A stretch of DNA of 32,000 nucleotides from Candidatus Saccharimonadota bacterium (lineage in GTDB: Bacteria; Patescibacteriota; Gracilibacteria; BD1-5; UBA2023). A program made the translations under genes and the position numbers. This document shows, one piece after another, positions 5,226-31,999 of this stretch. The notes below the pieces were generated by a model, which saw only the letters and a program-made list of their open reading frames with translations, was not told where the DNA came from and did not search any database. Position 1 is the stretch's first letter. Every line of letters begins with the position of its first letter. The stretch is from assembly GCA_963706795.1 (NCBI GenBank), contig OY970170.1:420001-452000 (forward strand). Direction: 5' to 3'.

Positions 5226-5265
5226 AGTGCGGAAAATACCCCGATGGTACTTCGACCTCCGGTTT

Positions 5266-5294
5266 TTGCAAATTTTTCACGAGCATGATACACT
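5266..5294 (+). promoter_or_regulatory. sigma70-like promoter for pilC (TTGCAA-N17-TACACT)
   Basis: -35 TTGCAA at 5266..5271, 17-nt spacer, -10 TACACT at 5289..5294. The pilC ATG at 5301 is only 7 nt downstream, which implies a leaderless or near-leaderless mRNA. Confidence 0.35.
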
Positions 5295-5300
5295 CACTGT

Positions 5301-6503
5301 ATGCAGATGAATGCTCTCACCGCCCGACTTTCGTCCCTCTTTAGAAAACCCGAGTCCACTGGGGTTGATATTGCGTCGACCGCAAATACCACGAGCATCA
5401 AGCTCTCACGCCAAGAAAAGATCTTTTTTCTCGATACGATCGGCAGCCTCATCGAGGCAGGAATCCCAATTATCAAAGCGCTTCAGCTTCTCTATTTTCA
5501 GTCCAAGAAAAAGTCCATCCAAAATCTCGCTGCGCTTCTCAAAATAGAGATCGAGAAGGGGCGAAGTCTCTCAGATATTGCTCGGGATCTCCCAAAAGTA
5601 TTTTCGGTTTTTGATGCTGCGATGTTTGAAATGGGAGACGCCACAGGACAAATCGGATCGATATTTCAGACGCTCACAAATAAAGAAGAAAAGACTCTGG
5701 AGCTCGAACGAAAAGTTATGGGTGCGCTCGTCTACCCGATTGCCATCGTGATGGTCGCGTTTTTGATGATTACAATCCTCCTGGTCTACGTCATACCTCG
5801 TATCGAGACAATCTATAAAGAAGCTCACACCAGCCTCCCTGCTCTCACGACTGCTGTGATCGGAGCTTCGCACTTTCTGCGGGATTACGGACTCTTTGTG
5901 CTTGTAGGATTCGCTGCAATTGGTTTTGGTCTCAAGCTCGCGCTCCGCGAACCCAAAGTACGAAAAGAAGTCGATCGATTCATTCTCACGATTCCACTCT
6001 TTGGGGGAATTATTAAAGCAAAGATTCTTGTAATTTTCGCTGAATTTTTGTCTATTTTGCTCGATTCTGGGATTACGATCTACCGAGCACTCGACATTGT
6101 CGCCGCAGCCACGAACAATCTCTATTATCAGGAAGAAATTCAAGGACTCATCCACGATATCCGCACCGGTAAGCACCTATCACTCGCCATGGGCGGAGAC
6201 TACCTCGAAAGACGCATCAAATGAGAAGTTGTCACCGGCAAAGAAATGCAAGCATCGGCTCGTCGCCTCGATTGCTTCACTATCGAACTCTCCACAGCCG
6301 TAAAGGTCGGGGAACAAACTGGAACCCTCGCCGCTATGCTCGGCAAAGCCTCCAAACGCTACGAACGCGAAATCGATACAACCGTTAAATCGCTCTCGAG
6401 TCTCTTGGAGCCCATCGTCATCATCGTCATTGGAGCGATTGTTGGAGTGATTGTTCTCGCTATTATGATGCCATTCTTTAATATGGTGCAGGTAATTAAG
6501 TAA
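5301..6503 (+). CDS. pilC: type IV pilus assembly / type II secretion platform protein (PilC/GspF family)
   Basis: 400 aa once TGA 6222..6224 is read as Gly, joining track ORFs 5301..6224 and 6246..6503 (same frame). Two GspF-type repeats, TM helices and the typical C-terminus LLEPIVIIVIGAIVGVIVLAIMMPFFNM. Stop is TAA. Confidence 0.9.
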
Positions 6504-6929: not shown

Positions 6930-8003
6930 TTATCCTCCACTCGCCTGTGCAAGTTTTGCGCTCTGGTCTGCGATTTGAAGAGCTTCGATAATGTGTCCGA
7001 GTCTTCCTTGCATGATGGCAGGAATATTGGAGAAACTCTCGTTAATGCGATGATCCGTCACGCGATCCTGTGGGAAATTATAAGTTCGGATTTTTTCAGA
7101 GCGGTCTCCGGTTCCAACCTGTGCGAGACGAACAACACCAAGTGCGGCATTGCGCTTTTCTTCTTCCATAGCGTAGACGCGGGCTCGCATGATTTCGAGG
7201 GCCTTCATCTTGTTTTGAAGCTGGGAACGTTCGTCCTGACATTCTACAACGATACCCGTTGGCATATGCACCATACGGATCGCGGAATTTGTCTTGTTGA
7301 CGTGCTGACCTCCAGCTCCACTGGCTCGGGATACTGAGATATCGAGGTCTTCATCACGGATTTCAACATCGAGAGCTTCCACCTCGGGCATGACTGCAAC
7401 CGTGATAGTACTCGTATGAACGCGACCTTTGTTTTCAGTTTCTGGAATTCGCTGAACACGATGGGTTCCTCCTTCAAATTTAAATTTGGAATAGGCTCCG
7501 TACCCCGAAACCTTGATGACCATTTCTTTGATTCCACCAACATCCGCACCGTTTTCGTCGAGGATTTCGAGTTGAAATCCTTCTGCCTGCGCATAGATCA
7601 TATATGCATTAGCAAGCTCGCGACCAAAGAGTGCAGCTTCGTCACCACCGGCTCCGGCTCTGATTTCGAGGATGATGTTTTTTTCATCATTTTTATCCTT
7701 GGGAAGCAGGGCGAGTTTGAGCTCTTCTTCGAGCGTCGAAATACGTGCTTCGCCTGTTGCAAGCTCTTCTTTGGCCATTGCGATCATGTCGGGATCTTTT
7801 TCGTTCGCAAGAAGATCCTTCGCATCCTGCATATTGGTGATGAGGCCTCGGTATTCGAGATAGAGTCCTACGGATTTTTCGAGGGACTTCTTTTTTTGCA
7901 TGACCTCTTTAAGCTTTTTTGGGTCAGCATAAATCGCACCGTCTTCGAGAGACTTTTCGAGTGCGTTATATTCGTCTACTAAATGGTCGAGTTCGAACTT
8001 CAT
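6930..8003 (-). CDS. prfA: peptide chain release factor 1
   Basis: 358 aa from ATG 8003. GGQ motif (SGAGGQHVNKT) and RF1-type PxT tripeptide (RIPETENKGRVHTS). The 62-codon upstream extension in track ORF 6930..8189 runs into tRNA-like DNA and is rejected. Stop is TAA. Confidence 0.95.
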   Translation of the reverse strand: MKFELDHLVDEYNALEKSLEDGAIYADPKKLKEVMQKKKSLEKSVGLYLEYRGLITNMQDAKDLLANEKDPDMIAMAKEELATGEARISTLEEELKLALLPKDKNDEKNIILEIRAGAGGDEAALFGRELANAYMIYAQAEGFQLEILDENGADVGGIKEMVIKVSGYGAYSKFKFEGGTHRVQRIPETENKGRVHTSTITVAVMPEVEALDVEIRDEDLDISVSRASGAGGQHVNKTNSAIRMVHMPTGIVVECQDERSQLQNKMKALEIMRARVYAMEEEKRNAALGVVRLAQVGTGDRSEKIRTYNFPQDRVTDHRINESFSNIPAIMQGRLGHIIEALQIADQSAKLAQASGG

Positions 8004-8092
8004 ATTTGAGAAATGCGGAGATTGTACGATGACCTCGCGAAAAGTCCAATTCTTTTGACAATAGAGGGATAATCGATACTCTCGGAAACGTT

Positions 8093-8120
8093 GCCCTGAG
8101 GGCGGAATGGTAGATGTGCG
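8093..8120 (+). pseudogene. truncated copy of the 5' part of tRNA-Leu
   Basis: GCCCTGAgGGCGGAATGGTAGAtG matches the first 24 nt of the intact tRNA-Leu at 8231 at 22 positions. It then diverges, and no matching 3' acceptor strand or foldable anticodon arm follows. Confidence 0.4.
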
Positions 8121-8230
8121 ACCTTGCGAAGCATGGAAGCCATACCCCCGAATACGAGCATCCGAACTCTGAAAGAGTCGGTGCGACATATGAGTGGGGT
8201 ACGCGGAATATTTGAAGATACGAATTACAT

Positions 8231-8314
8231 GCCCTGATGGCGGAATGGTAGACGCGGAGGACTCAAAATCCTCTTCCTTCGGGAGTGCGGGTTCGAGCCC
8301 CGCTTAGGGCACCA
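8231..8314 (+). tRNA. tRNA-Leu(CAA): tRNA-Leu, anticodon CAA
   Basis: Manual cloverleaf: acceptor GCCCTGA/TTAGGGC, anticodon arm GAGGA-CTCAAAA-TCCTC, long variable arm TCC-TTCG-GGA, T arm GCGGG-TTCGAGC-CCCGC, encoded CCA. Confidence 0.9.
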
Positions 8315-8613: not shown

Positions 8614-8704
8614 GGAGAGATGGCAGAGTGGTTGAACGCGCTAGTCTCGAAAACTGGTATACCAGTCTCTGGTATCGAGGGTTCGAATCCCTCTCTCTCC
8701 GCCA
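8614..8704 (+). tRNA. tRNA-Ser(CGA): tRNA-Ser, anticodon CGA
   Basis: Acceptor GGAGAGA/TCTCTCC, anticodon loop CTCGAAA, long variable arm ATACCAG-TCT-CTGGTAT, T arm GAGGG-TTCGAAT-CCCTC, encoded GCCA end. Confidence 0.9.
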
Positions 8705-10248: not shown

Positions 10249-13200
10249 TTACATGTAGAGTTCTTCATCAAATGCGATTCACTGGCTTTCAGAATACGCA
10301 CGGTAGCGTTCGAGTTCTTCTGGGTTCATAGTGGCAGTTTGTGGCTTTTTTACTTTAGGAAGAGGCATATCGAGGATATCGATCGTCCTATCCATGACTC
10401 TTTGCATGAGATTTTGATAGACTGTTTCGGTCTGATTTCGGTAGATAACATTCTTCACCTTATCCTGAAGAATCTTGCTAGATTGCACATCAGGCGAGAG
10501 GAAAGCGGCTCTATCCTGAGGCGTGGTGCCAGCAAAGTGATATTTTTCTTTCCGCTGAAGAGTGTCGTAGTAGTCGCGGTAATGTGCCATGATTGGAATA
10601 CCCGCATCCTCGAGCTGCTCTACCCAATCAAGTGTAGTGTTAAATACATCCGGATCGAGCTTGAGATTTTGGTTTCGTATCCACTTCATGAGTGTGCTGA
10701 GAATATTCTCAAGCTGCCATAGACGATACTGATCTACCTCTTCTTTTGATCTAGTGCCATCAGAGAAAATATTCGAATTTCGAGCCTCACGATAGGTCTT
10801 GAGGAATGCCTGGAAATACTTCGTACTATCCGCATTACGGAATCCTCATCGTGCATTAAGACCAATTCCGTCAGCCTTAAGGAAGAATTGCTCGATCATC
10901 GGAGGATTATCGAGATACGATTCGATCTTGTCCTTTGAGATGCCGACTTCGGAATGCCCAGAAATAGGATCAATTTCGTAGAGCCCCTTTACAGCATTCC
11001 AATACGCAACATATTCTGGATATTTTGCTGGCTCTGTTTCTGCGAGGTAGCGGATTTCTGGATCGTCGGAGAGCGAGAGTTTTTTATGGATTTTCGCTCC
11101 GTAAGTATTCCAAAATGTCTCAGCGTATTCGATTGCATCTTTGATGCCTTTGTCCTTGTCCTGTACTGCCCGTGCCTTTCTGGCTTTCTCAATCTTGAGA
11201 TACGCGTCCAGCATTCCTGGATCATTTTTTGAAAGACGTGCAATGGTATTACGGAAAATATCAACGTTTCATGGACGTGCCATGAGATAGAGCTCAGGAT
11301 GATTGGTTCCTCGGAAAAAGCTTGATGGAATCTTTCAGAGTACTGTTGGGTCCATAAATTCAGTAGAATCCGTCATCATAAGTACAAAACCAAGCTTACG
11401 CATCTCAACTGCATCCCCTGGAGATCCCTTTGCCCAAATCTTTTCTATCGCTCCAGCAGCCGTAATTGGTTGACCGTCACGAATCTTGCCAAGAGCATAT
11501 TTGTATCGACCGGCCGCAGTAGCAAAATCACGTTCGGATTCATCACCACCCTTTTTAAATTGTGCTTCTGAGGCATTGATTCGGGCGATTTCAAATTTCT
11601 TACCCATCGTGGTAGGGATTGCAGCAATCTTCTCATCCGAAAGATATTTTAAATATTGTTCGATGAGCATAAGTTCAGTGATCGCAATCGTTGCACCTTG
11701 TGCGTCACGTATCTTTTTTGTATATTCTGCTTTAAGTACCTTGGCTCGATTGGTATCTCCTACTAATTTTTCAAAAAACACATCCTGTCAGCGGTATGCT
11801 TTAAGTTCTCAAACATAGAGTGAACCGTTGTCTTCAACAAGGGCATAGATCGCCGCAATGAGCTTGAACTGATCAAAATGTTTTGATTCCAAGAGATGAA
11901 GTACTTCGCCAGAGAGTGAACCCTTCATTTCCTGGAACTCTTTTTTATAATCATCGAAGACCTTATCACGTTCACGATCGGCAAGGACACGAGCTTCACG
12001 AGTAAGTGGATGTCATCGACCAAGTGTACGAACCATCAATTCATAAAACATTTCTTGTTCGATGAGCTTGTTCCCATGTGACAGCTTATGCTGTACCATA
12101 TGAGTAACACTTTGAAAGATATTTCCCACATTCGAAACACTGATTCCATTTCGCATCCATGATCCAAAAAATCCAGCAAGTCCACCATGTTCATGGAGAT
12201 GTTTTCCATGACCATGTTCGTCGTCATGTTTCTCATCCGGCTTAAAATCATCTTCGCTACGAGCATTAATTTTGAGAAGCTTCAGACGACTCACTAAGAC
12301 TGAATACGAAACATTATTCGCTACAAATTGCTCTCCACTGAGCTTATAGCTCTTTTCTTTGTCATCGATCTTTACTTTTGTTGCATAGCGAAATGAGACT
12401 TTATTTTCGGAAGCCGATGTGATTTCTAAAAATCCGTCACCTGCTTTGTTATAAAAATATTTTACTCATGGATGTTCTTCTCCGTGAGATGAATGCTCAT
12501 TTGGTACAAGTTTTTTATGCTCTGTATCCAAGAAAAGATCACTGAATTGAGATCGAAGCGATGGATCGCTTTGAATAAATGCGGCAAATTCACCGTAGTT
12601 ATCGCAGGGTTTAATACGTGCATATTGAGCTTTTGCAGTACGTTGATCAAGGGGTTTTTTGCTATTTTCTTGATCAAAAACAAAGCTGTAATAGAACCAC
12701 GTAAACGGACTCATGCCAGCCGGCGGACCAACAACCACTCCTGCTGGGGTCATGATTTTCATTGACTGAGGAGCTTCCGAAATGCTCTCAATTCGATAGA
12801 TTTCGTATGGTGCATGCTTCGATTGAAATGTCATTCCTGCCGCAATAGGAATTCCTACTCCATCCTTATCAAGATCATCAATATTTTTTTGAAGCTCAGC
12901 AAGCGAGAGAATATGTATCTTATCGCTCAGAGATTCGTCAATGTCTTCTCCTGACTGAAACGCTGCGGGATAGCGCTCCTTAAAGAGAGAAGAATTGGCC
13001 GAAAGTACAATAGAACTATCTACTGCCTCAATGAGTGATAACCTCAAGAGACGTGCAAAATCTCCGTACTCAAGTGTACGAGTCTGAACATGACTCGTGT
13101 CTTCGTATTTACGAACCCCATTTGATCCTGCTAATCGAAATTCGATTTCGGGGATCAATTCTTCTCCTTCTTTTTTTCCTATGGAGACAATTTCCATAAT

Positions 13201-14370
13201 CTCATTTCCCCCATTTTTTGTAGGGAAAACGACAAAACTTCCTGGGCCCATAGTCGTGATGCTTGCCCCTTTGGAATCAAGCCCTATAAGCCTGCCTCAG
13301 AGAAGCTTATCAAGCTCGTGGGCAAACGATTCAAAAGTAATTTCTCCGGTCTTTTCATCTGCAAAACGAGCATTTTCATTTGCGGTTTTATCTCCATTGA
13401 GTCGATCCGTTACGACATCTGTTTTAAGAAGTTCTTTTCCGATTGACCCATAGTCTGCATCATAAATCCATTCAAGTGGAATATCGGCATTTTCTTCTCT
13501 CAAGCTCGAAAAAAATTGCTCTTTATCCTCAGGAGTAAGGAATTTTTTTGTTTTTTCATCTGTTGCGGACAATCGACTATTGAGAACATCAATAAGTTTG
13601 TCCTTTACAGTTTTTTGATCTAGTCAGAGCGCCTTTGCCGCAGCAATCAAGCTCAAAAGCGGGATCGCGGGAGAATATTTCTCTAAAATCTTTCGGAGTT
13701 CTTTTGGTTCATTTTCAAAGGCTTCGGCAATCGTCTGCACTTGCGAAGTCAGAAGCGTACGACCTCCAGACTCCAAGAGGAGAATTGCTTTTTTTTGTTC
13801 TTCATTCTTGAGTCAAATATGAGCCTTAACGGTCTCTTCTTCACCTGCTTGAATTTTTTCTTTTTTGGCAGTTCTTCTGACAAGAGCATCAAATGATACC
13901 AGTCTGGCACCACGTGAAATATCTATTAACTCAGAAAACTCCATCTTTGAAACCGTAGACTCAAAGAGTTCATCAGTTTGGCTCGCAGAAAAACCGAGAC
14001 GTTTAATACGACTTCGAAGTACTGACTCTGCAGCATTGCGATCAAAAATAACCTTGCGCATTACGCTCTGTAAAACGGTAGCATTGAGCGAAGTAAGTCG
14101 GATAGGCTCATGAGCAATATTCGTACTGGTCAAATACGCCTCAATCATAGCAAGGAGCTCTAGACGGGTTTCTTCTTTTTTTTGAGCAGAAAGACTTGTA
14201 TCAGCAAGACGAAATACAAGTTTATTAAATTCAGCTTCGCGTAGGCACTTTTTATCAATAGCACGCTTAAGCGCCTCAGATTCTGTAAGCACATTTTTTG
14301 TGTTTTGTGCAGTTTTTGAGTTCGCCGCGACCTTGGCATTTCGGCTATTAGGGGAATTTTCTAGAGACAT
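10249..14370 (-). CDS. giant ORFan protein, 1373 aa under table 25
   Basis: Seven track ORFs (13813..14370, 13297..13572, 12466..13251, 12013..12294, 11335..11781, 10846..11214, 10279..10689) share one frame. I translated all gaps by hand and found only TGA (12 in total), with no in-frame TAA or TAG until 10249. An upstream in-frame TAA at 14401 fixes ATG 14370. There is no clear TM segment, and one His-rich patch (DEKHDDEHGHGKHLHEHGG). Confidence 0.85.
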
Positions 14371-20985: not shown

Positions 20986-22866
20986 CTATTTGCCGACATC
21001 TCCGATAATCTTTACACCTGCAGCCTTTGCTCCAACAGTAATGAGTGCAGTAGCCAGAGTAAATGTCACAATCGTATTTCGCATATATGCAGCTGCTACG
21101 AAAGAGAGCATGATACCTCCCATAATAGAATAAAACATAGACGGCTCTTGGATGCGAATCTGGTTGAGAGCATCAATGATATTTTTACCAACTCCAACAC
21201 TCAGAAGCATACCTTCATAAGCAGCGTGATTGAGCTGAGTACCCGCGAATTCGTTGAATTCAGCAATATACTTGTTCGTAGGAGCTTCTACGAATTGGAT
21301 GAGTCTTTTTGCACCTTCTTCTCCAGGATGTTTCTCTAGAATCATCGCCGACATTGCCAAGTAGAGTTCAGAGCGAGTTCCTTGATTCATTTTCTCAAGG
21401 TTAGTCTCACCACCTGTAATAGCATAGAAGGTAAGTAGTTGATGAACAGAGAATGTTTCACCGTTATTAAATTCTCCAAGATAGTCTTTAAATCAGAACT
21501 TATCAAGTGCTCATGACATCTCAGAAGCAAATCCGTCCTTTTTTGTCATATCTTCGAGTAATGCTTGTGCCTTTGGATTAAATTTTCGATCACGGAGCAC
21601 ATTACGATACTCTCAAACATTTGTTTTTCCTTCGGTACCAGTGATACGGAGAATTACCTCCTCATCTAATCAACGATCACGAAGAGTACCCATACTTTCA
21701 TCCACTACACCATCAAAGTTACCTGTGGTTGGATTTTTACGAAAGATAGTAGCAGTGAGATGAGTGATAAGTTCTTCTGGTTTACTCATATCAATGTTTG
21801 CAATCGCCTGTTGAACACGATCCAGTTTTTCATAACCGATACCCTTGTAGAGACTACGAAGTGATTCGGATAATGGCATGTTTTTCCAATTTGGATTGAT
21901 CGTTCTGAGATTTTCATCCATCCAATCAGCATTTGCAGAAAGTGCCTTCAGCATAAGGGAAGTTGCAGAGAGTTCTTTTGCGCCACCTGAGAGTCCAAGT
22001 TTCTCAGGATAGTCATTAAATTTCTGGAGTTCGTTGAAAGTCTTGTTTCGTACAACATCATACGAAAGAATTCGTGAAGCGAGACCTACAGCCTCATCCT
22101 CTGCCTTTCGCTCATCATTGCCCCAAGTTCCAGCGGCTACGCCCGCACCAATAGCACCCCAAAAACTTTTGAAGACCTTTCGGTTATTTCTGCGAATGAG
22201 GTGACGTGCCATAAAGCTGTACTCAGCCTCTTTGAGCGCTTCTTTTGAAGACTCTGGAACCTTTTCTTCGGTTTGTTTGATCTTTTCTTTGGCTTCTTCA
22301 ACAGTTTTTTTAGTCGGCAATTTACCACCACTGCCCTCATCAGGCTGAAATTCAAAAAGCTTTGCAAGGCTCGGAAAGGCATGAGAAAACCATTTTTCGA
22401 TCTTGTTCAAAAAAGAGTCCCAGATATCGCCTGTCTTTGAAAAAGCGGCTGTGATTTTTTCGATCAAATTAAGTCCGCTGGCATTTTTTACACCATCAAA
22501 ATTTGAGACACTTGCTGCAACTGCGGCACCTGCCGCCGCTGCAATACCACCCTTTTTGAGAGCAACTTCGATGTTTTTGTCATGTTCTTCTTCATTGGAT
22601 CCAGCAGATACTTCCTGTGCAAAAGCTTTTACATCTGGACTCGCTTCCGAAGACTTTGAAACCTCAGAGATAATATCCATATCATCGCTCGAAAGTTCTG
22701 TACGAAGTGCTTCTTGCTGCTCTCGGGCAGTTGCCTTGGCTTTTGAGATCTTTATAAGGCGCTTTGAGAGATCACTGTCTTGCTTTTCGATAGATTTTGC
22801 AAGATCGTGAAGTGCAGAACGCGGAGCTTCTGAGGCTACTGATTTATCTTTGAGAATTTCTGACAT
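20986..22866 (-). CDS. ORFan membrane protein F, 626 aa (last gene of the ORFan array)
   Basis: Track ORFs 21670..22920 and 20986..21390 share a frame, and the gap contains only TGA (4 in total). Start is ATG 22866, stop TAG 20986. Ala/Gly-rich hydrophobic stretches (GIAAAAGAAVAASV, WGAIGAGVAAGTWG) and a C-terminal TM hairpin (MFYSIMGGIMLSFVAAAYM-RN-TIVTFTLATALITVGAKAAGV). Confidence 0.8.
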
Positions 22867-22904
22867 AGGAGGGTGTAATGTACTTGCTTCGATGTTATCA
22901 CTTG

Positions 22905-22935
22905 GAAAATAAAAAGGCAAATATCTGCCTTTTTA
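22905..22935 (-). terminator. terminator-like hairpin between ORFan genes E and F
   Basis: On the minus strand: AAAGGCA-gatatt-TGCCTTT followed by TATTTT, starting at the gene E TAA stop. It could act as an attenuator or partial terminator within the array. Confidence 0.45.
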
Positions 22936-25473
22936 AAATGTTTTCCATTTAGAACCAAATCACGTTTTATCAATTTCGGTAAGAAAATCTTTCTGGCGCT
23001 TGTAAGCAACAGCAAGATTGAGAATGGCTACAAATCAATCTCCGCGGGTGAGAACACTATCTAACGTACTAGTATCCTTTGTAGGACTTGAACGCTTCGG
23101 GATAGGCATCCCAAATTTTTCATACCATTCATCTGTCATTGCAGTCGTATCATCAATTATGTTCTGATACATTCGCAACTCAGCCATATCTGACATATAG
23201 AGGCCCGTTTTCACTTTTTTTGTAGTGAGAATGGTTCGGCCACCTGAAATTACTTTTGGCTCGGTAACATCCATGAGTCGATCAACAGAGGAAATCGGCT
23301 GCTGCCCTGCTATAATTCTTTCGACTACTTTTCTTGCAAGATCTCAAGACTTTGGAGGAAGAAGATCAATATACTCTCCTATGAAATCATCAAGATTTTT
23401 CTTATCTGCCTCAAGTGTTTTCTTGGCATGCTCAATATAGTGAGAATCTATTTTGAGAACATTTCCATAATTACTCAGAATAAATTCAATCATGTTTTTT
23501 TGCTGTGCAACATTTGCCTGTGAAGTGACAGTGCCAGTGATGTACTCAATTATATCCTCTACGACTGCTTCATGGGCATAATTCGCTCGTAGTGTAAACT
23601 TATAGGCACTATTTTTATCATCTCATTGAGAGTATTCTGGCTCACCACTTCCTGCAATAATCATAGCAATACGCTCTCTTAGCGCTTGATCTTTATTCCG
23701 ATGCGTAGTCTTCACTCATTGCATATTTTTTTTCTCGGTGAGACCGTAAAGCATCGTATTTCCAGAAGAAAACATCCCACGTTCTGCACGATAGTCACTG
23801 AGAACCGCTAGAATGGCTGATGTAGACCACTTCGTAAACTCATCAATGCGTGAGTTCCAAAGTCCTGTATCTCGAATTCCTACGGTCATGAATTCTCTCG
23901 GATCTGTACCAAAATCGAGTGTCGTCTTATAAAAAGCAATATCTGGTGCAACTGTATCTCGGCCGAAAACATTATGAACACGGAATCATCCACGTGTTCA
24001 CGGAACACGAATGTCTGCACCATTTGTTTTATCAAGTAAGTCGTGGGTAGCACCAAATGATAGTATATGTCCTGTGACAGATTTACCACTTGATGACTCA
24101 CGTCCTGGAAAGTTTCTCCAAGCAGCCTTATCAAGTCAGAACTGACCTCAAAGAGCCATTCCTGCAGCAATAGTAAGACCTCCGGCAATCATTGAGGCAG
24201 GTATCTTCCAAAGTCATGGAGCTATCTTGCTTCATGCCTTTGCTCACGCGGTGAAAAGTCAGGCTTCAGCTATTCATTGTGAGAATGAAAAAAGATCACT
24301 CGAATTTTTGTGATACTCACGGAAGAATACCCCCATCATAAGTCCATGCATGGTTGTACCTCCTACTTTAGCAAGTCCATTGAGACTGAGAAGCGTTGCC
24401 TGCAAAGTCTTTTCTGTAACTCCACCAAACTTGGCAAGTAGCTCTGTTTTTGCGGCAGAAAATTTTTGCAGATCAACAATCTTGAGTTCGCTTGGTGTAA
24501 GCGCAGCAAGTTTTGCATGCGCACGATCAAAGCCCGCAAGGCTATAGCTCGTAAAAGCTCATCGAGTAGAGTTATACACCTTCCCCATTTCCGCCATAAT
24601 TCGGAATGAAAGACTTGAGAGCTTGGAACGATCGAGGGCAATTGCTCCGAATTGTTTCACAATAGATCGATCAACCTCCTCTAGCGCCCCAAGTTCATTA
24701 CGAAAGAAGACCCGTTGGATTCTATGTACCGTATTCCCAATAGTATCAATAGTACCAGCTCAGACACTCATCAATCAAAATGTGCTCGCCGTATTATTTA
24801 TCAAGCTCTTAGCCTGTTGGACTCTCTCGTATTTAATCACAATAGCACCCCCGAGATAACTCTCAGTCTCAAGATTGTCCCTAAGTGCATCTAGCTGATC
24901 ATTGAACGGCTTATTGCGTGCACTCAAAATGGGTGCTGTATCGATAAGAGGGGCTCATTTTTTGGACGAAACCTTGAAAACCTCTGCGAGGTTAATCATA
25001 TATTTTGTGTTCTCAGCCTGAGACGGAACAGCTACCCAAAGCGTCAACATGCCTCGGCTTACTTGGGCTTTTTTGATCTGGGCAAGCCCGCCAAAACTTT
25101 GAGCAATTGCATCAGTGAAGGCTATTGCCTTTTCTGTAGCGATTGGTTTGTGTTTGTGCTCCTCTGCAAGCGCACGATCCTTTGGCAGAGCATCGAAATC
25201 CTTAAGAAGTGCAGCCCGTATAAGACCCGCTATTTCAAGTCCTTTCTTTGCAATTGATTGCTCTGCTCCTGTCTCCTCATCCTTGAAGTCTGTCTCGTAG
25301 ATACGCTTATAGGCGATCTCTGTGTCAGGTTCCTTGCCGAGCTGTATATCCAGGTGATGGAGCTCTTTTTGTCGCAATAAAGACTCTTGGGCACGCGTAA
25401 ACAAGGGGCGAGCCCCTTGAATTTTTTCTCTATATGAATCGCTCGGTTGAACCGTATTGAGTGCTTCGGACAT
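22933..25473 (-). CDS. ORFan protein E, 846 aa, with a Gly-rich hydrophobic core
   Basis: One frame runs from ATG 25473 to TAA 22933..22935. It joins track ORFs 24955..25524 and 23035..23274 across about 1.7 kb that shows no ORF in this frame on the standard-code track. I translated it codon by codon: 18 in-frame TGAs and no TAA or TAG. The hydrophobic segment is GLFTAGAKAGSKIAPGLWKIPASMIAGGLTIAAGMALGG. Confidence 0.8.
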
Positions 25474-25499
25474 AGTGTGAGGATTACTTCTTGAGTGTA

Positions 25500-27791
25500 T
25501 TAACCTTTCTTGAGTACTTCTCAAGCCTTTTTAATGAGACTTGCAAAATCTAGCTTGAGAGACTTAGGGTTAAAGAAAGTATCTGAGAGTACCTTTGATC
25601 CAACATGTGCATTGATCTCATGGATTATACCAAAAATGCTATCTGCTGCGGTAGGACTTCACTTAAGTGCCGTAATATCAGTCACAAATTGTGCCCGAGT
25701 TCCGCCCTTTGGCTTATAGGTAAGGGACTTTCCTTTGATATCAGATACCTCTCTCTTCAAATCTCTGCCTTCCTTATTCAGTTCTTTCATCTCACCCTGA
25801 AGAGCACTAAGCTCACTAACAAGAGCATCTCTCGCTGGATTTGTAGTTTGTGTGCTCATGCTCGTAGTATGACCACGTGCATCTGTGCTCATAATTGGAG
25901 CTCCTGGAATACTGGCTGGAGTGGTTTTTAATTCATCAAGTTTGGCATCGATTGCTTTTTGTTTCTTTTCAATTTCTACGTCTACATCAGCAATGCGATT
26001 TACTTTCACTTGTGCCTTGCGATCGTTTTCATCCCATTCCTGCATATCTGCATATTTCGTTAATTGATCTCGAAATTTCTCATACAAAACGCGAGATTTT
26101 TCATCTGAAAAGTTTATATCTTTTTTCTCCATGTCAGTTGAATTGTATGCATTACCCTTAATTCGCTGGGCAACAGCATCAATGGCATCGGTACTATCAG
26201 ATTTTGTAAGGAATCTACCATTTACAAAAGGAAGTGAGTCTCCAAGCTTTTGAGCACTTCGAATAACGGTTGCAGTTTTCTGAACTTTTCCTTCAGCAGT
26301 ACGTACTGGGATTTGCCATAGACCTCGCTTTCCAGCGATAATATCCTCGGCGCGAGTTGCGTATTCTGAAGTAGACATCTGACCAGCTTCATATTTTGAG
26401 CTGAGATCACGATAAGCGGATTCACGAGCGCGTGCTTCCTTTCTTTGACGTGCCCAAGTTGGCTCTTGAGACTTGAGCCCATCTTCGGCAGCCCGTTGTT
26501 CATCAGGAGTCATAGCGGCGTATTCCGTGCTATCCTGAAGAGCTTTTAAAGCTACTTCAAGTTTAACTGGTGATGTAGCTCGGATTTTTTCGATAGTCTT
26601 CGCACGATATTCTGTATAATTCTTCGAAGCTGGAGTAAATTCTGGGAGCTCATGATGAGCATCAGCATAATCAGAGCTGAGTGCATATTTAGAAGCCACA
26701 TCTCCAAATAGTTTCATCTTATCTCCAATACCCTGTATCGTGGGCGCTGCAACACGAACACCAGGAATTACACCAGCAAAAGCTCCAGCCCCTTTTACAA
26801 ATGCACCTGGCGCATTAAATAAAAATTTTGTAGCCTTTGGAACTCTACGCATCGTCTTCCATATAAGTATTGCGGCAGCTCCTGTTAATAGTAGGTGCTC
26901 ACTTGCCACTCATCCGGTCACATCCCAAACAAAACCTGCTGTGTTATCTATTCCGCTATTTATCATTCCTGTAACGGCTTTGGTTGCCATATTAGGCAAT
27001 ACCTCATCACATCCAGACTCGAGTGCAGACATCCATGAAGCAAGCGTAGTGAGTTTATCTAAACGGGTTCCCTCATTTCCTGGGTTCTGGCCATTTGGCA
27101 GAAGCGTACTCTGATCTTTTGCTGCGGCAACAACCGAATTAATCACCTTTGCAAACTGCTCTCGAGATGCATTTCGTACATTATGAGCAGTATCTTTGGT
27201 AGCTTGAGCTTGGATTCCAATATCGCTACTTCCAAAGAACCGTGAAGCCTTATTCCCCTTCTGAGCACCATCTCCCGCGATAACATAGGTATCAAATTTT
27301 CTCATACTTCGTTTTGCCGAAGCAATAATCTCTTCGACAAGTGCCTGTTCTTTTTCAGCATTATCTCTCAAATCCGCAACTGAGTATCCAAAATCGGCCG
27401 CGCTTTTAAATACCGATTTTGTACTCAGCTTGAGACGCTCAGCATCTGTAAGACCTACAGGGAAAGACTTTCCATCGCGAGGAGTATATACCTGCAGTTC
27501 ACGAATTTCACCTACAAGATCACTGAGTTTTGCAGCAGTACTTGTGCGAGTCTTCTTGAGTTCGTCATGAAGCTGTACAATCTGTGAATCAGGCAGACTT
27601 CGCACAGCAGGAAGCAGAACTTCACGTACAAACTGTGGCGTGAGCTTATCAAGATTACTCGGAAGTTCATTTGCAATCCCTGACATGGAATTTTTGAGAG
27701 CCTGGATTGCTTTTTTATCTTCGGAAGTGATCGGAAGATCTCCAGATACTTTGTCCTTGATCTGAGTATAGAGAGGAGTGTCGAGTGACAT
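25500..27791 (-). CDS. ORFan protein D, 763 aa
   Basis: Track ORFs 26910..27791 and 25659..26909 abut at TGA 26910..26912. The frame continues past TGA 25659 to TAA 25500..25502 (3 TGAs). Internal hydrophobic pair HLLLTGAAAILIWKTM / GAFVKGAGAFAGVIPGVRVAAP, with coiled-coil-like K/E/Q-rich regions. Confidence 0.85.
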
Positions 27792-27819
27792 ATACGGGAA
27801 ATTTAAAATCTATTTATTT

Positions 27820-29781
27820 TTATATCTGCTTGAGAGTTGCGGCGTCTACAAAGAAATTTTCATCGTTATAGATGATTTCAACATAGATACTTTGGCCGAA
27901 TTTGGCGGTATTTTTTCCAAGTTCGACAACATTATTTTGAGTGAGGACGTACTGATTTTGAGGATTCTTTGAAAGTGTCGAATTTGCGAGATACGCTCAC
28001 GTTGCATCACGAGGGACTGTTGGGAAGGCCACCTTTACATTCTTACCGACCGGAATATCCAGTCCATTAATCTTATGTGAGCTCACTATTGTATTATTTG
28101 GAGTACTCTGTGGACTTTGAGTGACCTGCTGTACAGGCTGAGCATCTTTCACCGGAGGAGATTTGAGATTTTTAGCAATCTCCGGAAGGAGATCGGAGAG
28201 TTTTTTGGATGCAATCTTTTTAGGTGTGAGATCGTATTGTTTAAGAAAAGCTTCTTTTTCTGTTACTCCTTCGTTTGGTCCATTTCCTGTAAGTCTTGCA
28301 TTTGCATCTCATCCATTGATATATGCCCTGAGTACTCGCTTGAGCATTTTAGTCCCTAGTTTAGAATTCACAGGGAGTTCTGTTTCTAAAGTATTTGAGA
28401 AGATTGACGCCTTATGATCCGCTGGAAAAAGTTTTGCGAGTGGGATATCTTCCAAATCTGATTCTACAAAATCTAAGTAGTCTTCGAATTTTCATGGACT
28501 CGGAGTTCCTTTGAGTTCAGAGAGTTGTGTAATGTCAGCCTTGAGTCCCGCCTCGCCTTCAAGAGCCTTTCGGAGAGTCTTTTGCTCTGTAGTGTTTACG
28601 CTGTTATCGTCTGGTCCAGAATCCTTCGCATCCTTCTTATTCTTTGATTTTCCTGTAGATCAGCCGAGCCCATCGAGTAACTCTGTAGCCTTCTCAACTC
28701 CTCCAAGTGACTTAGTAACTCCATGGAGGAAAAGTCCACCAAGAAGGAGTTGCCACCCTGAAAACCCCTTTATTTCTCCCGTAAGAAGCTTAAATGCGAG
28801 ATAGAGCATACCCACAAAGACGATAGGTGCTGAGCTGCCAGAACCAGAAATAATATCCTTGGCGAGATTTACCGTTGTGCCAACTGGAGCTTCCATGAAA
28901 TCTTTTGCAAGCCCCTTGGTACCACGATCTTTAAGCTTTTGAAGGACACTGTCAGACACTTCTACCTCTCCCGTTGGAGTTGCAATCTTTCCAGTCTTTG
29001 CAACTTCTGAGAACTGCTTCTCAACATTGGCTGTCGTTTCTACATATCGAGTAATCGTCACACGATCTACTGCGCCAAAGTCGCTTGCAGCAAAACTGAG
29101 GAGGAGACGCTTATCGGCAGGGTCTTTTACTTTTTCTTGGATTTGAGCTTCGTATTTCTCGCGGTCAGTTTCTGTGAGATCGTATTTCTTTTTGAGTGTC
29201 TCTATATATTCCTTGGTTGTTGCATTTGAATCAAGTACCCCCTTTGCATCCTTTTTTGAATCTACAAACTCCGAAAACTCTGGAGTATTGATGACCATTG
29301 CCTGTTGAATAGAAGGGAGAACGAGTTTGTTTTGTATAATTGCCGCATTCATCATATCGGCAATTTCCTTGGAATGATCCTCAGTCTTTCCAATATGTTT
29401 AGCCGTGATTTTTGTACCCTCGAGAACAAACTCGTAATCTGCTTGGAGATTTTTAAAAAGCTCTGAGATTACGCTGATACCACCTCCACCGAGGATCGCA
29501 AGGGATTCGAGTGTCTTTTGAACACGCTCAGTATCTTTTTGGCCAGTTGAGATAGCCTCAGAAGCTGTTTCTTTAGGTTGAGACGCAGTAGATTTTGCAG
29601 TGATTTCTCACTGGAGCACGTCGAGTCGTGTATTGATCTCCGCGAGCTTATCAGGAGTAGTCTCGAGCTCAAGCTTGAGACTTGCAAGTTGATTCTTTGC
29701 AAGGTTTTGATCATCCGCTGTAGGAAGCTTGTTTGCAGCTGCTTCGATAGCTGAGAATTTTGTTTCGATAGGTGTCGCCAT
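27820..29781 (-). CDS. ORFan protein C, 653 aa
   Basis: ATG 29781 to TAA 27820..27822 with 5 in-frame TGAs (29608, 28660, 28492, 28309, 27997); I checked every in-frame triplet. Central TM hairpin APIVFVGMLYLAFKLL ... GWQLLLGGLFLHGV. The C-terminal roughly 90 aa looks beta-rich. Confidence 0.85.
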
Positions 29782-29837
29782 AGACGGACTTGAGGAATAA
29801 TTACTTCTTTAGTTTGCCATATATGCGTCTTCTATTG

Positions 29838-29866
29838 CAAAAAAAAGCACCTTTTGGGCGCTCTTT
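29838..29866 (-). terminator. rho-independent terminator after ORFan gene B
   Basis: On the minus strand: AGCGCC-caaaa-GGTGCT (one G-U pair) followed by TTTTTTTT. It lies in the 156-nt gap between genes B and C. Confidence 0.6.
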
Positions 29867-29937
29867 TTAGTGAAAATATATTGACTTCTCTATATAAATA
29901 GGTTTGGAATATTTTTGATATTCACTGGTTTTGCTCA

Positions 29938-31605
29938 CTATACAGCGGTAATCGCGATCTTTGAGGCAAATGCGTGATTGGTGGTATTTCCTTTGTAGAG
30001 ATCGGTGACAAACTTTGCCATCTCCGCACGTGAGACGATCATAGGGTCACCTTTTCCAAACTGCTTACTCGCACCAATGAGTTCAAAAGACGAACCATTC
30101 ACACGAATATCTAGGATGAATGCATCATCGATAGTCTTAGTCAGTCCATAGAAGGATTTTTCGAATGGCTTTACAGCGATTGCAAATTTTTTGTCTCCGA
30201 TGACAATCACCTGCTTTGTACTATCAAAGGCAATATTTCCAGTTGGGAGATTAATGCCAGCTTCCTTCATTTTAGGAGCATCAAGCTCTGACCAGTCGAG
30301 CGTAATAGGAAAGTTAGTTGCCTTGTTGACCATGCTTGCCATCACTTCATCACGCTTAGTTGCGTATTGTGATTGTGCATTGGCGCTGTCGATCTTGGCA
30401 CGCTCTGTCTGAATGGTTGCAAGCGCTGCAGCTGGCTTCGTAAGATATGCTTCGTTGTATCCCACAAGTGCAAGGAGTTGCTTGCGAAGTCCGTAGACAT
30501 TCGCAAACCCCGTATCGAATTCTCCACCTGCAACTTGTTTGCGATACTGAGATTTAAATGGCTCAAACACATTATTTTTAATTGCTCCATTGATCACTGC
30601 TCCAAGCGTATAGAGATCAGCCATGATCGCAGCGCGACTCGCATCATACTCTTTTGAAGCAAGAATCTTGTTTGCAATCGCTCGATATGAGCCGTCACTG
30701 AGATTCTGGACGCTCATGTCCTTAAATTTTTCTACGAGATCTGGTGTGATCGCAGTACCCTGAAAGAGCGCGAGATATGGCTTGTTATGATTGAGTCGTT
30801 CAGTAGCAGCTTTTTGAGCAGATTTCACTTCGTTAGTCTTGGCTTGCATGAGTTGGTTTTGCTTGTCGGCTTCGGCTTTTTGAGTTTGCTCGAGAGCAGT
30901 TCGACTTTGAGTTTCGAGGGCTGTTTTGTGGTTTGCGCCAAGAGAATTGAGCTTTTGATAGAGTCCTTCGTAGTCGTTTTTAAAATCGGCTGATTCAAAT
31001 TTTGGTGTCTTGATCGCCTCATTTACTCAAGCAAGTTCGCCTGCAAATATTGCTGCCCAGAATTCTGGAGTGTCGATTTTTTGTTTTTGTTCGCGTGCAA
31101 ATTCAAAGAATGGAACAAGATTTTTACGTTTCAGACCTGAAAGATCAACTCATTTAATGAGTTCAATCTTTATAAGCTTTTTACTCTCAGGATCCGAACT
31201 TTCAGGCATGCCATTTTTTGAGAGCTGAGCAAGAATATTGAGCGACTTACGCTCTTCGAGCTCCTTTCCTACGCCCTCAATGGCCATGTCTCCATCGCTA
31301 TATCCAAGGAACTTTGCAAAAATATCACCCACAATCGGAAGACTCAGAAGCCACTTAAAGATTTCTTGTATAAACGAAGGCGCGGAAGCCAAAAAATTCA
31401 TACCCTTCTCCTTGAGTGCTTCAAGCGGGAGAATCTTGCGATCAATCTCTAAAATTTTGCCATTCAGAGAATTGAGATACGCACTAAGATCATCTTGTGA
31501 GAGCTCTGAAATTTGTGTAGGAATTTCACCACCTCTAAATCCTGCGACGAGAGCCGGATTTGAAAGAAATTTTGAGAGATTTACAGGCTTCGTTTTTTCA
31601 TCCAA
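29938..31605 (-). CDS. ORFan protein B, about 555 aa (start uncertain)
   Basis: Track ORFs 31150..31605 and 29938..30849 share a frame and join through TGAs at 31150 and 31027. Stop is TAG 29938. The first canonical start after the upstream gene's stop is TTG 31605, but the frame stays open to ATG 31794. Amphipathic/hydrophobic stretch FIQEIFKWLLSLPIVGDIFAKFLG. Confidence 0.7.
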
Positions 31606-31739
31606 AAGCTTCGTGAGTGGAACAACAGAACTATCGATGAGGTTCGTGATACGTTCCTCAAACGAATTTGCGCTCGTTTTCGCCTCTGTAGCTGCATCCT
31701 CTGGATTCGTTTTTTCTGGGGAAGATGTGAGAGCTTGGA

Positions 31740-31999
31740 TGTATTCACCTTTTCAGAGATGATCTACTGAACTTTTGAGGGTATCAGTCGCTCATCCAAG
31801 GAGATCCATCGTCTCAGGATTTGAGAGTAGACGATCCATTGTCCCAAGAACCACACCCTTTTTTTCGGTAGGCGTAAGATTATATTTTTGGAATTTAGAC
31901 TCGATATATGCCGCAAAGGCTTTTTGATGCTCTGACGAGAAAAGCTCCGATTTTACACCAGCAAATACTCGGTCGAGTTCATGAGAACGTGCAACCTCA
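31740..31999 (-). CDS. ORFan protein A, C-terminal fragment (gene continues beyond the window)
   Basis: A different frame from gene B gives a protein-like translation: ..RSHELDRVFAGVKSELFSSEHQKAFAAYIESKFQKYNLTPTEKKGVVLGTMDRLLSNPETMDLLGGATDTLKSSVDHLGKGE. It ends at TAA 31740..31742. Confidence 0.55.

Follow-up and report, generated by a model that had tools for sequence, protein, structure and literature searches.

The DNA analysed here (the window) is a 32-kb stretch of contig OY970170.1 (positions 420,001 to 452,000) from a gracilibacterial genome, and the element of interest is an array of five large genes on its minus strand at 20986-31998, in the order B, C, D, E and F in the direction of transcription. 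By the conservation described below, these genes are real and under selection, and they are very probably parts of one functional system. The features of the array, in window coordinates and in the direction of transcription, are as follows.

29938-31998, minus strand: gene B, partial, 686 codons open without a stop
29838-29868, minus strand: terminator-like stem-loop followed by U8, in the gap between B and C (-13.5 kcal/mol, z = -2.9; 2 of 200 shuffles fold as well)
27820-29781, minus strand: gene C, 653 amino acids (aa)
25500-27791, minus strand: gene D, 763 aa
22933-25473, minus strand: gene E, 846 aa
23764-24393, minus strand: conserved core of E, aa 361-570
22910-22935, minus strand: stem-loop with a U-rich tail, overlapping the E stop codon (-12 kcal/mol, z = -4.3; 0 of 200 shuffles as good)
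20986-22866, minus strand: gene F, 626 aa

With TGA read as a sense codon, the sizes given for C, D, E and F in an earlier note, made from the letters of this DNA alone, were borne out, and its intergenic distances matched exactly: 66 nucleotides (nt) between E and F, 26 nt between D and E, 28 nt between C and D, and 156 nt between B and C. In-frame TGAs amount to 34, where the note had counted 32 (4, 18, 3, 5 and 4 in F, E, D, C and B, respectively). The note had also divided the first frame into a partial gene A and a gene B of about 555 aa, making six genes; since there is no stop in the frame and its product aligns with homologs of 666-686 aa in two other genomes, the two are a single gene and the array has five. 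Residues 8-363 of B align with residues 77-460 of these homologs, and by this alignment B lacks about 75 N-terminal residues, which lie beyond the window edge.

The hairpin between E and F and the terminator in the 156-nt gap, both proposed earlier, are real folds by their shuffle z-scores. The stem-loop between B and C probably separates B, as its own transcript, from a C-D-E-F transcription unit, and that at the E stop codon is possibly a partial terminator or attenuator ahead of F. A clear Shine-Dalgarno sequence is absent from every array gene. The leaders of E and C (25474-25499 and 29782-29810, minus strand) share the string AAGAAGTAAT and then CCTCA, approximately 14-25 nt 5′ of the ATG, which may be a promoter -10 element or an organism-specific translation signal.

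The window has a guanine-plus-cytosine (GC) content of 43% without a compositional break at the array, whose GC equals the window average. On both strands, long frames emerge from many short ones once TGA is taken as sense. In alignments of the array proteins with their orthologs, the residue opposite TGA is Gly in 36% of cases (background 5.9%) and Trp in 0.4%, and in the housekeeping genes of the window TGA sits on the conserved Gly of the DnaJ GKGDL motif and of the S-adenosylmethionine-binding GxGxG motif of a methyltransferase. TGA is thus confirmed to encode Gly and not Trp (code 25), a code known, to our knowledge, only from Gracilibacteria and Absconditabacteria. UvrB, RsmA/KsgA, RF1 and DnaJ were identified by eye from the translations; Pfam recognised a T2SSF/PilC-like protein, a GT4 glycosyltransferase, an FAD/NAD-binding reductase and a TehB-like methyltransferase. 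Since these ordinary housekeeping genes are accompanied by two tRNA genes, the window is a chromosomal segment of a TGA-recoded bacterium.

Conservation of the array

Queried with E, a word-indexed protein database yielded a single protein, P0001 (31% identical across 80% of E, E-value 6e-83), whose contig, from a Patescibacteria metagenome-assembled genome (MAG), carries consecutive genes of 681, 730, 880 and 622 aa, the orthologs of C, D, E and F, respectively (29%, 33%, 32% and 25% identity). When GTDB representative genomes and contigs from metagenomes were scanned, the same arrangement turned up in a "Ca. Peribacteria" MAG and in two assemblies of one further organism. P0001 was also run exhaustively with phmmer against 1.84 billion cluster representatives, which yielded only 28 hits: nine cover the full length, and the others are short pieces of the kind to be expected if standard-code gene calling is applied to TGA-recoded genes. 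In every full-length-hit contig with enough sequence, E is flanked by large co-directional genes. One E ortholog (MDD2487341.1) is deposited as a hypothetical protein of Candidatus Gracilibacteria.

The array occurs in 11 distinct lineages, with GC contents of 24-45% and TGA used as sense in all of them, at 4-51 per 1000 codons. The C-D-E-F order is found in L003 and L005/L004 (L numbers denote the related loci), and also in L002, where a 203-aa gene separates E from F (identities of 25-37%); E together with large, positionally equivalent neighbours is found in L006, L007, L008/L014, L009/L010, L011, L012 and L013. Orthologs in different lineages share 20-37% identity, the nearest ortholog pair being 62% identical in amino-acid sequence, and no TAA or TAG interrupts any ortholog in the 11 lineages.

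The arrays always sit among housekeeping genes, and, apart from a 229-aa gene next to F that recurs in L006 and L011 (with DnaJ after it in L006), the flanks vary by lineage (DnaJ, Era, EF-P, sortase, RecG or RNase HII). The changing flanks and the native GC content argue for a native chromosomal unit that is held together by selection, and when gene order survives such divergence, this is a classical sign that the products work together, often while in physical contact. Two earlier suggestions gain support: that the genes are genuine but have no recognisable relatives whose function is known, since they are conserved yet match no family, and that the tight co-directional cluster encodes one system, since the same gene order recurs in 11 TGA-recoded lineages. 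We read the array as a vertically inherited operon restricted to TGA-recoded Gracilibacteria.

That the standard code hides the array, as had been foreseen, is illustrated by the public entry for P0001 (L001, 10001-12643), which is stored with 44 spurious Trp residues at TGA positions, giving strings like LVWWWVGVVWWNALGG. Other E orthologs in public collections are likewise translated with TGA as Trp or broken into code-11 fragments (P0001, P0002, P0011, P0022, P0025, P0026 and P0028 are among the affected entries). This mistranslation probably explains why word-based searches nearly failed.

Protein E, the conserved anchor

E is the only array member that can be recognised in every lineage (ten orthologs in the alignment, and 11 lineages when L013 is included). 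The window E aligns end to end with nine orthologs, and hmmsearch E-values within the set range from 1e-135 to 1e-273. Sliding conservation over the ten orthologs peaks in the core at aa 361-570 and in the last 35 residues, where the C-terminal motif is GDxFxxLLNxxxEYKR. The core consists of FFxEYHKN, a Gly-rich helical hairpin around APGLWKIP, and then LDKKxW..P.RE.., PGTRGG, F.T[ND]PRE[YF]M and WN.R.DE[YF]. Conservation is highest at the hairpin and in the approximately 120 residues after it, and conserved polar residues flank the hairpin (FFxEYHKN, APGLWKIP, LDKKxW). This conservation peak, together with the polar flanks, argues that the hairpin region does not passively anchor E but is its functional centre, acting in or at the membrane.

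E also uses TGA for Gly far more often than its neighbours (18 of 846 codons, versus 3-5 codons in D, C and F; 44 of 880 in the L003 ortholog), and the conserved Gly-rich hairpin holds many of them. The AlphaFold model of one E ortholog, P0007, has a mean predicted local distance difference test (pLDDT) of 59 and was built from a nine-row alignment whose rows partly carry Trp in place of Gly. Close to its N-terminus it has an alpha/beta domain of mixed type; a helix-turn-helix occupies the hairpin (helices 307-330 and 333-357, pLDDT about 60), and there are a helical bundle after the core and a conserved C-terminal helix; the bundle and the alpha/beta domain reach pLDDT values of about 70-85.

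Partner families and accessory genes

The earlier note had described the array proteins as sharing one architecture. They turned out to be five unrelated families: paralogy among B-F is ruled out (BLAST E-values ≥0.1, hhalign probability ≤3%). A shared C-terminal beta domain of C, B and the F3 and U proteins of other lineages was also considered, and is ruled out by hhalign. All of the array proteins are rich in Lys, Glu, Ala and Gln.

Orthologs of D are present in L002, L003 and L005 (30-37% identity), and the proteins at the D position fall into three groups that are linked by profile (hhalign 89% for L007/L009 and 85% for L006/L011/L012). D has a conserved helical N-terminal domain (LASWMSALExGxDxVLPN), a weakly hydrophobic Gly/Ala segment at aa ~290-350, and a long helical C-terminal half with the motifs MQEW, IPGxP and FNPKxLKLD. 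An AlphaFold model of its aa 1-293, a fragment free of TGA codons, is all-helical with a pLDDT of 49.

For C, orthologs lie at the same position in L003, L005/L004 and, partially, L002 (26-32% identity), and the proteins at the C position form three groups with no detectable similarity between groups. The N-terminal half of C is helical, a central Gly-rich hydrophobic pair spans aa ~313-360, and the C-terminal ~90 aa look like a beta domain; the conserved block is DYLxFxExDLxxIPLxKLFPxDHK...KMLKRVLR. F has an ortholog in L003 (E-value 8e-31), and the F-position proteins of L002, L008 and L004 are linked by profile (hhalign 91%); it carries an Ala-rich segment at aa ~101-123 and a hydrophobic helix pair at its C-terminus (aa 575-622). 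B-type proteins precede the array in the window, in L007 (686 aa) and in L009 (666 aa), and share a conserved amphipathic or hydrophobic motif, W-L-x-x-[LI]-P-[IL]-[IV]-G-D-[IL]-[IF]-A-x-F-x-G-Y. The partners C, F and B diverge beyond recognition between lineages while E stays conserved.

A further protein of 203-206 aa with histidine-rich N- and C-termini (MSSHEHSHS... ...HEHGGGHH) joins the array in four lineages at variable positions (L002 5251-5862, L003 16855-17466, L007 16234-16854 and L009 12238-12858); it is missing from the window and has no Pfam match.

Hydrophobic segments and cysteine content

Every array protein has one or two Gly/Ala-rich hydrophobic stretches, and their relative position is kept even in the absence of sequence similarity (residues ~310-360 at the C position, ~250-370 at the D position, ~330-490 in E, and the C-terminus or ~205-240 at the F position). 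Their hydrophobicity was estimated as the best 19-residue window on an approximate Hessa scale without positional weighting, so that the figures are themselves approximate.

F, C-terminal pair: +0.5 to +2.3 kcal/mol
X, Z and F3, variants in other lineages: +2 to +3 kcal/mol
E: +3.3 to +6.4 kcal/mol
C: +4.5 to +5.2 kcal/mol
D: +4.9 to +8.4 kcal/mol
B: about +8 kcal/mol
Soluble housekeeping proteins of the window: +5 to +11 kcal/mol
PilC-like control: -5 kcal/mol

The earlier description of internal Gly/Ala-rich hydrophobic segments holds for every protein and for their position in the orthologs, but within the window array only the C-terminal pair of F is of transmembrane grade; E and C are borderline, and D and B fall in the soluble range. 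Outside the window, the X, Z and F3 variants also carry transmembrane-grade segments. It is accordingly plausible that F spans the membrane; for E and C this is possible, and for D and B it is doubtful. Inside the segments of E and D there are glycine-zipper-like motifs of the form [GAS]xxxGxxx[GAS] (GMALGGQFG in E and GAFAGVIPG in D), which define a motif class and not a homologous family. A hydrophilic N-terminal region of 300-400 aa precedes the first hydrophobic segment, and no signal peptide, lipobox or LPXTG motif occurs in any array protein of any lineage.

Cysteine is strongly depleted. The array proteins of the window contain 1 Cys in 3,574 residues, versus 29 in 3,573 for the housekeeping proteins (binomial P = 7e-12), and across all lineages 40 array proteins contain 27 Cys in 28,004 residues (0.10%), compared with 0.81% in housekeeping proteins of the same loci, an eight-fold depletion. 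Exclusion of Cys is typical of exported proteins in monoderm bacteria, and is also seen in long helical structural proteins. The hints of extracytoplasmic exposure are indirect, consisting of this depletion and the fast divergence of the partner proteins. No link of the cluster to the cell surface, host contact or predation was found in the form of signal peptides or adjacent secretion genes.

Searches for known families and systems

No recognisable domain had been seen in the array proteins, and the database searches agree: B-F have no match in Pfam or NCBIfam (E-value ≤0.1), PADLOC (≤0.01) or PHROGs (<0.05). When Pfam was run on each member of the E alignment, no family was matched by more than one member, and ten accessory proteins of the related loci gave no Pfam match. 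Sequence-profile searches of the PDB with families C, D, E and F and with the ten-sequence E profile gave a best E-value of 0.05, all matches being spurious. The D profile found nothing among the word-indexed proteins, probably because TGA-recoded proteins are stored there fragmented or with Trp, and nothing in the Joint Genome Institute (JGI) metagenome contigs. As had been stated, Walker A motifs and N-terminal signal-like segments are lacking; HExxH, LPXTG and CxxC motifs were likewise not found in B-F, and BLAST detected no internal repeats in the array proteins. Foldseek comparison of a low-confidence AlphaFold model with the PDB and BFVD gave no match below an E-value of 1e-3, with TM-scores of at most 0.26 (in the PDB, none with an E-value <0.1), although these negatives weigh little, structure prediction having been weak (pLDDT 49 and 59) and the model being poor just where the E family is most conserved. 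Foldseek rows for CagA, LolA/LolB/RseB and tape-measure proteins were rejected as not significant.

The outcomes that had been named as speaking against a novel system did not appear: there is no match to phage-tail, tape-measure, type IV secretion system (T4SS) or type VII secretion system (T7SS) components, and conservation is clear. Searches with E and D by tblastn in 50,697 phage genomes and a scan of IMG/VR gave no match, and no capsid, terminase, integrase, relaxase or VirB4-like gene is present in the window or in any related locus. The VirB4, VirD4, EssC-type ATPase and VirB6-like families of T4SS, T7SS and conjugation systems are absent from the same loci, no secretion-system gene lies beside any array, and an anti-phage defence role finds no PADLOC match at the threshold given.

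Several known systems nevertheless invite comparison. The translocators of type III secretion systems (T3SS; IpaB/SipB/YopB class) and the chlamydial Inc proteins are also large, mostly helical, without signal peptides, operon-encoded and equipped with one internal pair of hydrophobic helices. Paired hydrophobic segments are present in the array as well, and the E ortholog model has a helix-turn-helix (pLDDT ~60); however, most segments lie above +3 kcal/mol on the approximate Hessa estimate, so that the pairs, which are Gly/Ala-rich, are mostly below transmembrane grade, and there is no family match to a translocator or Inc protein. Type III apparatus, chaperone and ATPase genes are absent from the window and the 11 related loci, and the lineage is a monoderm Patescibacterium. 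Phage tape-measure and ejection proteins are likewise long, helical and fast-evolving, with Gly-rich hydrophobic segments that are thought to form a membrane channel, but the array has no PHROG, phage-genome or IMG/VR match and no tail or capsid neighbours, and it consists of four or five distinct proteins in fixed order in housekeeping surroundings in 11 lineages.

Pore formers in which a hydrophobic helical hairpin is buried (the colicin pore domain, the diphtheria toxin T domain, the Bcl-2 family) and channel formers of the glycine-zipper type such as VacA also have Ala/Gly-rich, marginally hydrophobic hairpins with [GAS]xxxGxxx[GAS] motifs, and the array proteins may, like them, be soluble until a membrane is met; the likeness is one of composition, and there is no fold match (Foldseek, PDB) or sequence match. 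The cytoskeletal attachment-organelle proteins of Mycoplasma (HMW1-3, P65, P200) offer a tentative analogy: they are again large, lineage-restricted structural proteins without signal peptides or known homologs in other lineages, operon-encoded in a wall-less or reduced host-associated bacterium, yet they have no sequence relationship to the array proteins (Pfam, NCBIfam), in which no acidic proline-rich or EAGR-type domain was seen.

A candidate assembly and the alternatives to it

We propose, at somewhat below even confidence, that the products of the operon come together as a single hetero-oligomeric, lineage-specific assembly at the membrane of the cell itself. A site at the membrane is suggested by hydrophobic segments that stay in place where sequence similarity is lost, by the transmembrane-grade ones of F, X, Z and F3, by the zipper-like motifs in E and D, and by the lack of secretion signals and of an ATPase. 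That the products form one system, and perhaps a complex, is proposed because gene order is kept across deep divergence and C, D and E are tightly spaced (26-28 nt). The assembly would be organised around the Gly-rich hairpin of E and the domain right after it, with F supplying a C-terminal transmembrane anchor and E possibly acting as a further anchor. C, D and B would contribute long helical domains and small-residue-rich helices that pack on the core in a glycine-zipper-like manner, the resulting structure being membrane-embedded or membrane-apposed, and most of an envelope-associated scaffold or conduit would consist of the long helical N- and C-terminal regions. Conservation, gene order, the independence of the families, the position and composition of the hydrophobic segments and the conservation peak are observed, whereas embedding in the membrane and the formation of a complex are inferred. 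As to topology, the missing signal peptides and the hydrophilic N-termini of 300-400 residues argue that at least the N-terminal halves are cytoplasmic, whereas the exclusion of Cys and the rapid evolution of the partners speak for exposure outside the cell; a speculative arrangement that reconciles both has E and C bitopic, with the N-terminus inside and the C-terminus outside.

Some observations weigh against an assembly at the cell's own membrane. On the approximate scale used, the B and D segments do not exceed the best segments of soluble housekeeping proteins in hydrophobicity and C and E lie at the borderline, so that membrane insertion of four of the five proteins is not established; moreover, Cys exclusion fits exported proteins better than cytoplasm-facing ones. 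Both points can be turned in favour of an exported or host-directed apparatus, whose proteins would leave the cytoplasm by an unrecognised route and sit on the surface or insert their hairpins into a host or prey membrane, by analogy with translocators, colicin-type pore formers, tape-measure proteins and fusion peptides. Marginal hydrophobicity is a trait of proteins that pass from the soluble to the membrane state, the eight-fold Cys exclusion is as described, C, F and B diverge as they would under host-driven selection, the string FGFLGGIAGFLGLGAINNW in the C ortholog of L005 may resemble viral fusion peptides, and relatives of this lineage are episymbionts or predators (PMC8080830, PMC11452946). 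Nevertheless, no lineage provides a signal peptide, lipobox or LPXTG motif or a secretion gene next to its array, the first hydrophobic segment comes only after the long hydrophilic N-terminus, and the Cys content of g13, an unrelated large protein of the window described below, is also low (0.15%), so that the depletion may reflect the composition of long helical proteins. We consider an exported apparatus unlikely, though still to be reckoned with. Its most far-reaching form, a gracilibacterial machine that breaches or bridges membranes, in which E and its fast-evolving partners would open or fuse the host membrane through hairpins like those of fusion peptides or pore formers, is a long shot; if true, it would provide a conduit for uptake of host contents without a classical secretion system.

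A soluble, lineage-specific cytoplasmic scaffold, cytoskeleton-like or coiled-coil and broadly akin to the Mycoplasma attachment-organelle proteins, in which the Gly/Ala segments serve buried helix packing and only F tethers the structure to the membrane, would account for the missing signal peptides, the soluble-range segments of B and D, the Lys/Glu/Ala/Gln-rich composition and the housekeeping surroundings, and both models are mainly helical (all-helical for D aa 1-293; largely so for the E ortholog, which is alpha/beta near the N-terminus). It sits less well with the transmembrane-grade segments of F, X, Z and F3, with a hydrophobic hairpin bordered by conserved polar residues being the best-conserved part of E, and with the failure of BLAST to detect any repeat or heptad-rich giant coiled coil, and we think it rather improbable. 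A remnant of a prophage or mobile element, consisting of tape-measure, ejection or conjugation proteins, is very improbable: the proteins do resemble tape-measure proteins superficially in being large, helical, hairpin-bearing and without relatives, and tape-measure and minor capsid proteins do occur among Foldseek rows that are weak and not significant (best E-value 4.7e-3, TM-score 0.07), but the searches of PHROGs, phage genomes and IMG/VR were negative, the hallmark genes are missing here and in the related loci, and the same order recurs in 11 lineages in housekeeping surroundings at native GC. That the long frames are an artefact in non-coding or decaying DNA has next to no probability; reading TGA as sense does inflate frames on both strands, yet full-length orthologs at 20-37% identity run free of TAA and TAG in 11 lineages, TGA aligns with Gly codons, and motifs and order are kept.

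No description of the cluster was found in the literature, including PMC8406219, PMC8080830 and the metaproteogenomic work on Gracilibacteria (PMC11452946). Approximately 70 families that only Gracilibacteria and Absconditabacteria have in common, nearly half of them unannotated, have been reported, as have small, lineage-specific modules made up of hypothetical proteins (Jaffe et al. 2021, PMC8406219); the array is the same kind of content, but neither the cluster, nor its gene order, nor its proteins are described in that paper. In a cultured relative the membrane proteome is unusually rich in large proteins, and for the attachment and uptake apparatus of Gracilibacteria and their relatives little is known apart from type IV pili and a few giant proteins of the surface (PMC8080830).

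The array is real, conserved, confined to a narrow clade and without an assignable family; what is new about it is the set of protein families and the way they are arranged, not a demonstrated mechanism. Candidate phyla radiation (CPR) genomes are rich in such dark matter, so that the array should interest a specialist without astonishing one. Gracilibacteria and their relatives have hardly been cultured, if at all; their metabolism is minimal, and they depend on other cells to live. An array that takes up about 11 kb of a small genome, with order kept at 20-35% identity and, beyond its own orthologs, no detectable relative in 1.84 billion representative proteins, is a strong candidate for a lineage-defining cellular structure, of which the conserved core of E and the membrane anchor of F offer targets for proteomics, structure prediction from correct translations, and imaging. 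The code-11 fragments and the Trp-for-Gly translations (code 4) in public collections hamper both family building and structure prediction.

Other features of the window and related loci

Further features of the window are the following.

5244-6503, plus strand: T2SSF/PilC-type platform protein (E-value 8e-46), approximately 15 kb from the array
6930-8189, minus strand: RF1-like gene, read from sequence, with no TGA; its automatic start seems too far upstream
8231-8314 and 8614-8704: tRNA-Leu(CAA) and tRNA-Ser(CGA), after the RF1-like gene
10249-14370, minus strand: g13, 1,373 aa, with 11 in-frame TGA-Gly codons and no hydrophobic segment
20294-20983, plus strand: 229-aa gene converging on the end of F with a 2-nt gap; no Pfam match

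No further pilus genes accompany the PilC-type protein in the window. In g13, a histidine-rich stretch is followed by a Gly-rich hydrophobic patch, DDEHGHGKHLHEHGGLAGFFGSW; this protein found nothing in Pfam, NCBIfam, PHROGs, PADLOC, the word-indexed protein search or any related locus.

In L011 (17572-22568) and L003 (6476-7393), a few kb at most separate the array from sortase genes, that of L011 adjoining very large CLIPPER-domain surface proteins. A link between sortase and the array is unlikely, since no array protein has an LPXTG motif. The L002 contig (CAZXUQ010000010.1) bears the title 'uncultured Candidatus Peribacteria bacterium', but TGA is a sense codon in it, at 18 per 1000 codons and with 14-22 in each array gene; Peribacteria and Peregrinibacteria are regarded as standard-code organisms, so either this label or that generalisation may be off.

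The 229-aa gene next to F contains SDIDLFVV, which on our own reading resembles a nucleotidyltransferase signature. In L006 and L011 its orthologs are placed in the same way, convergent and after the array, and in L006 DnaJ comes next, as it does in the window.

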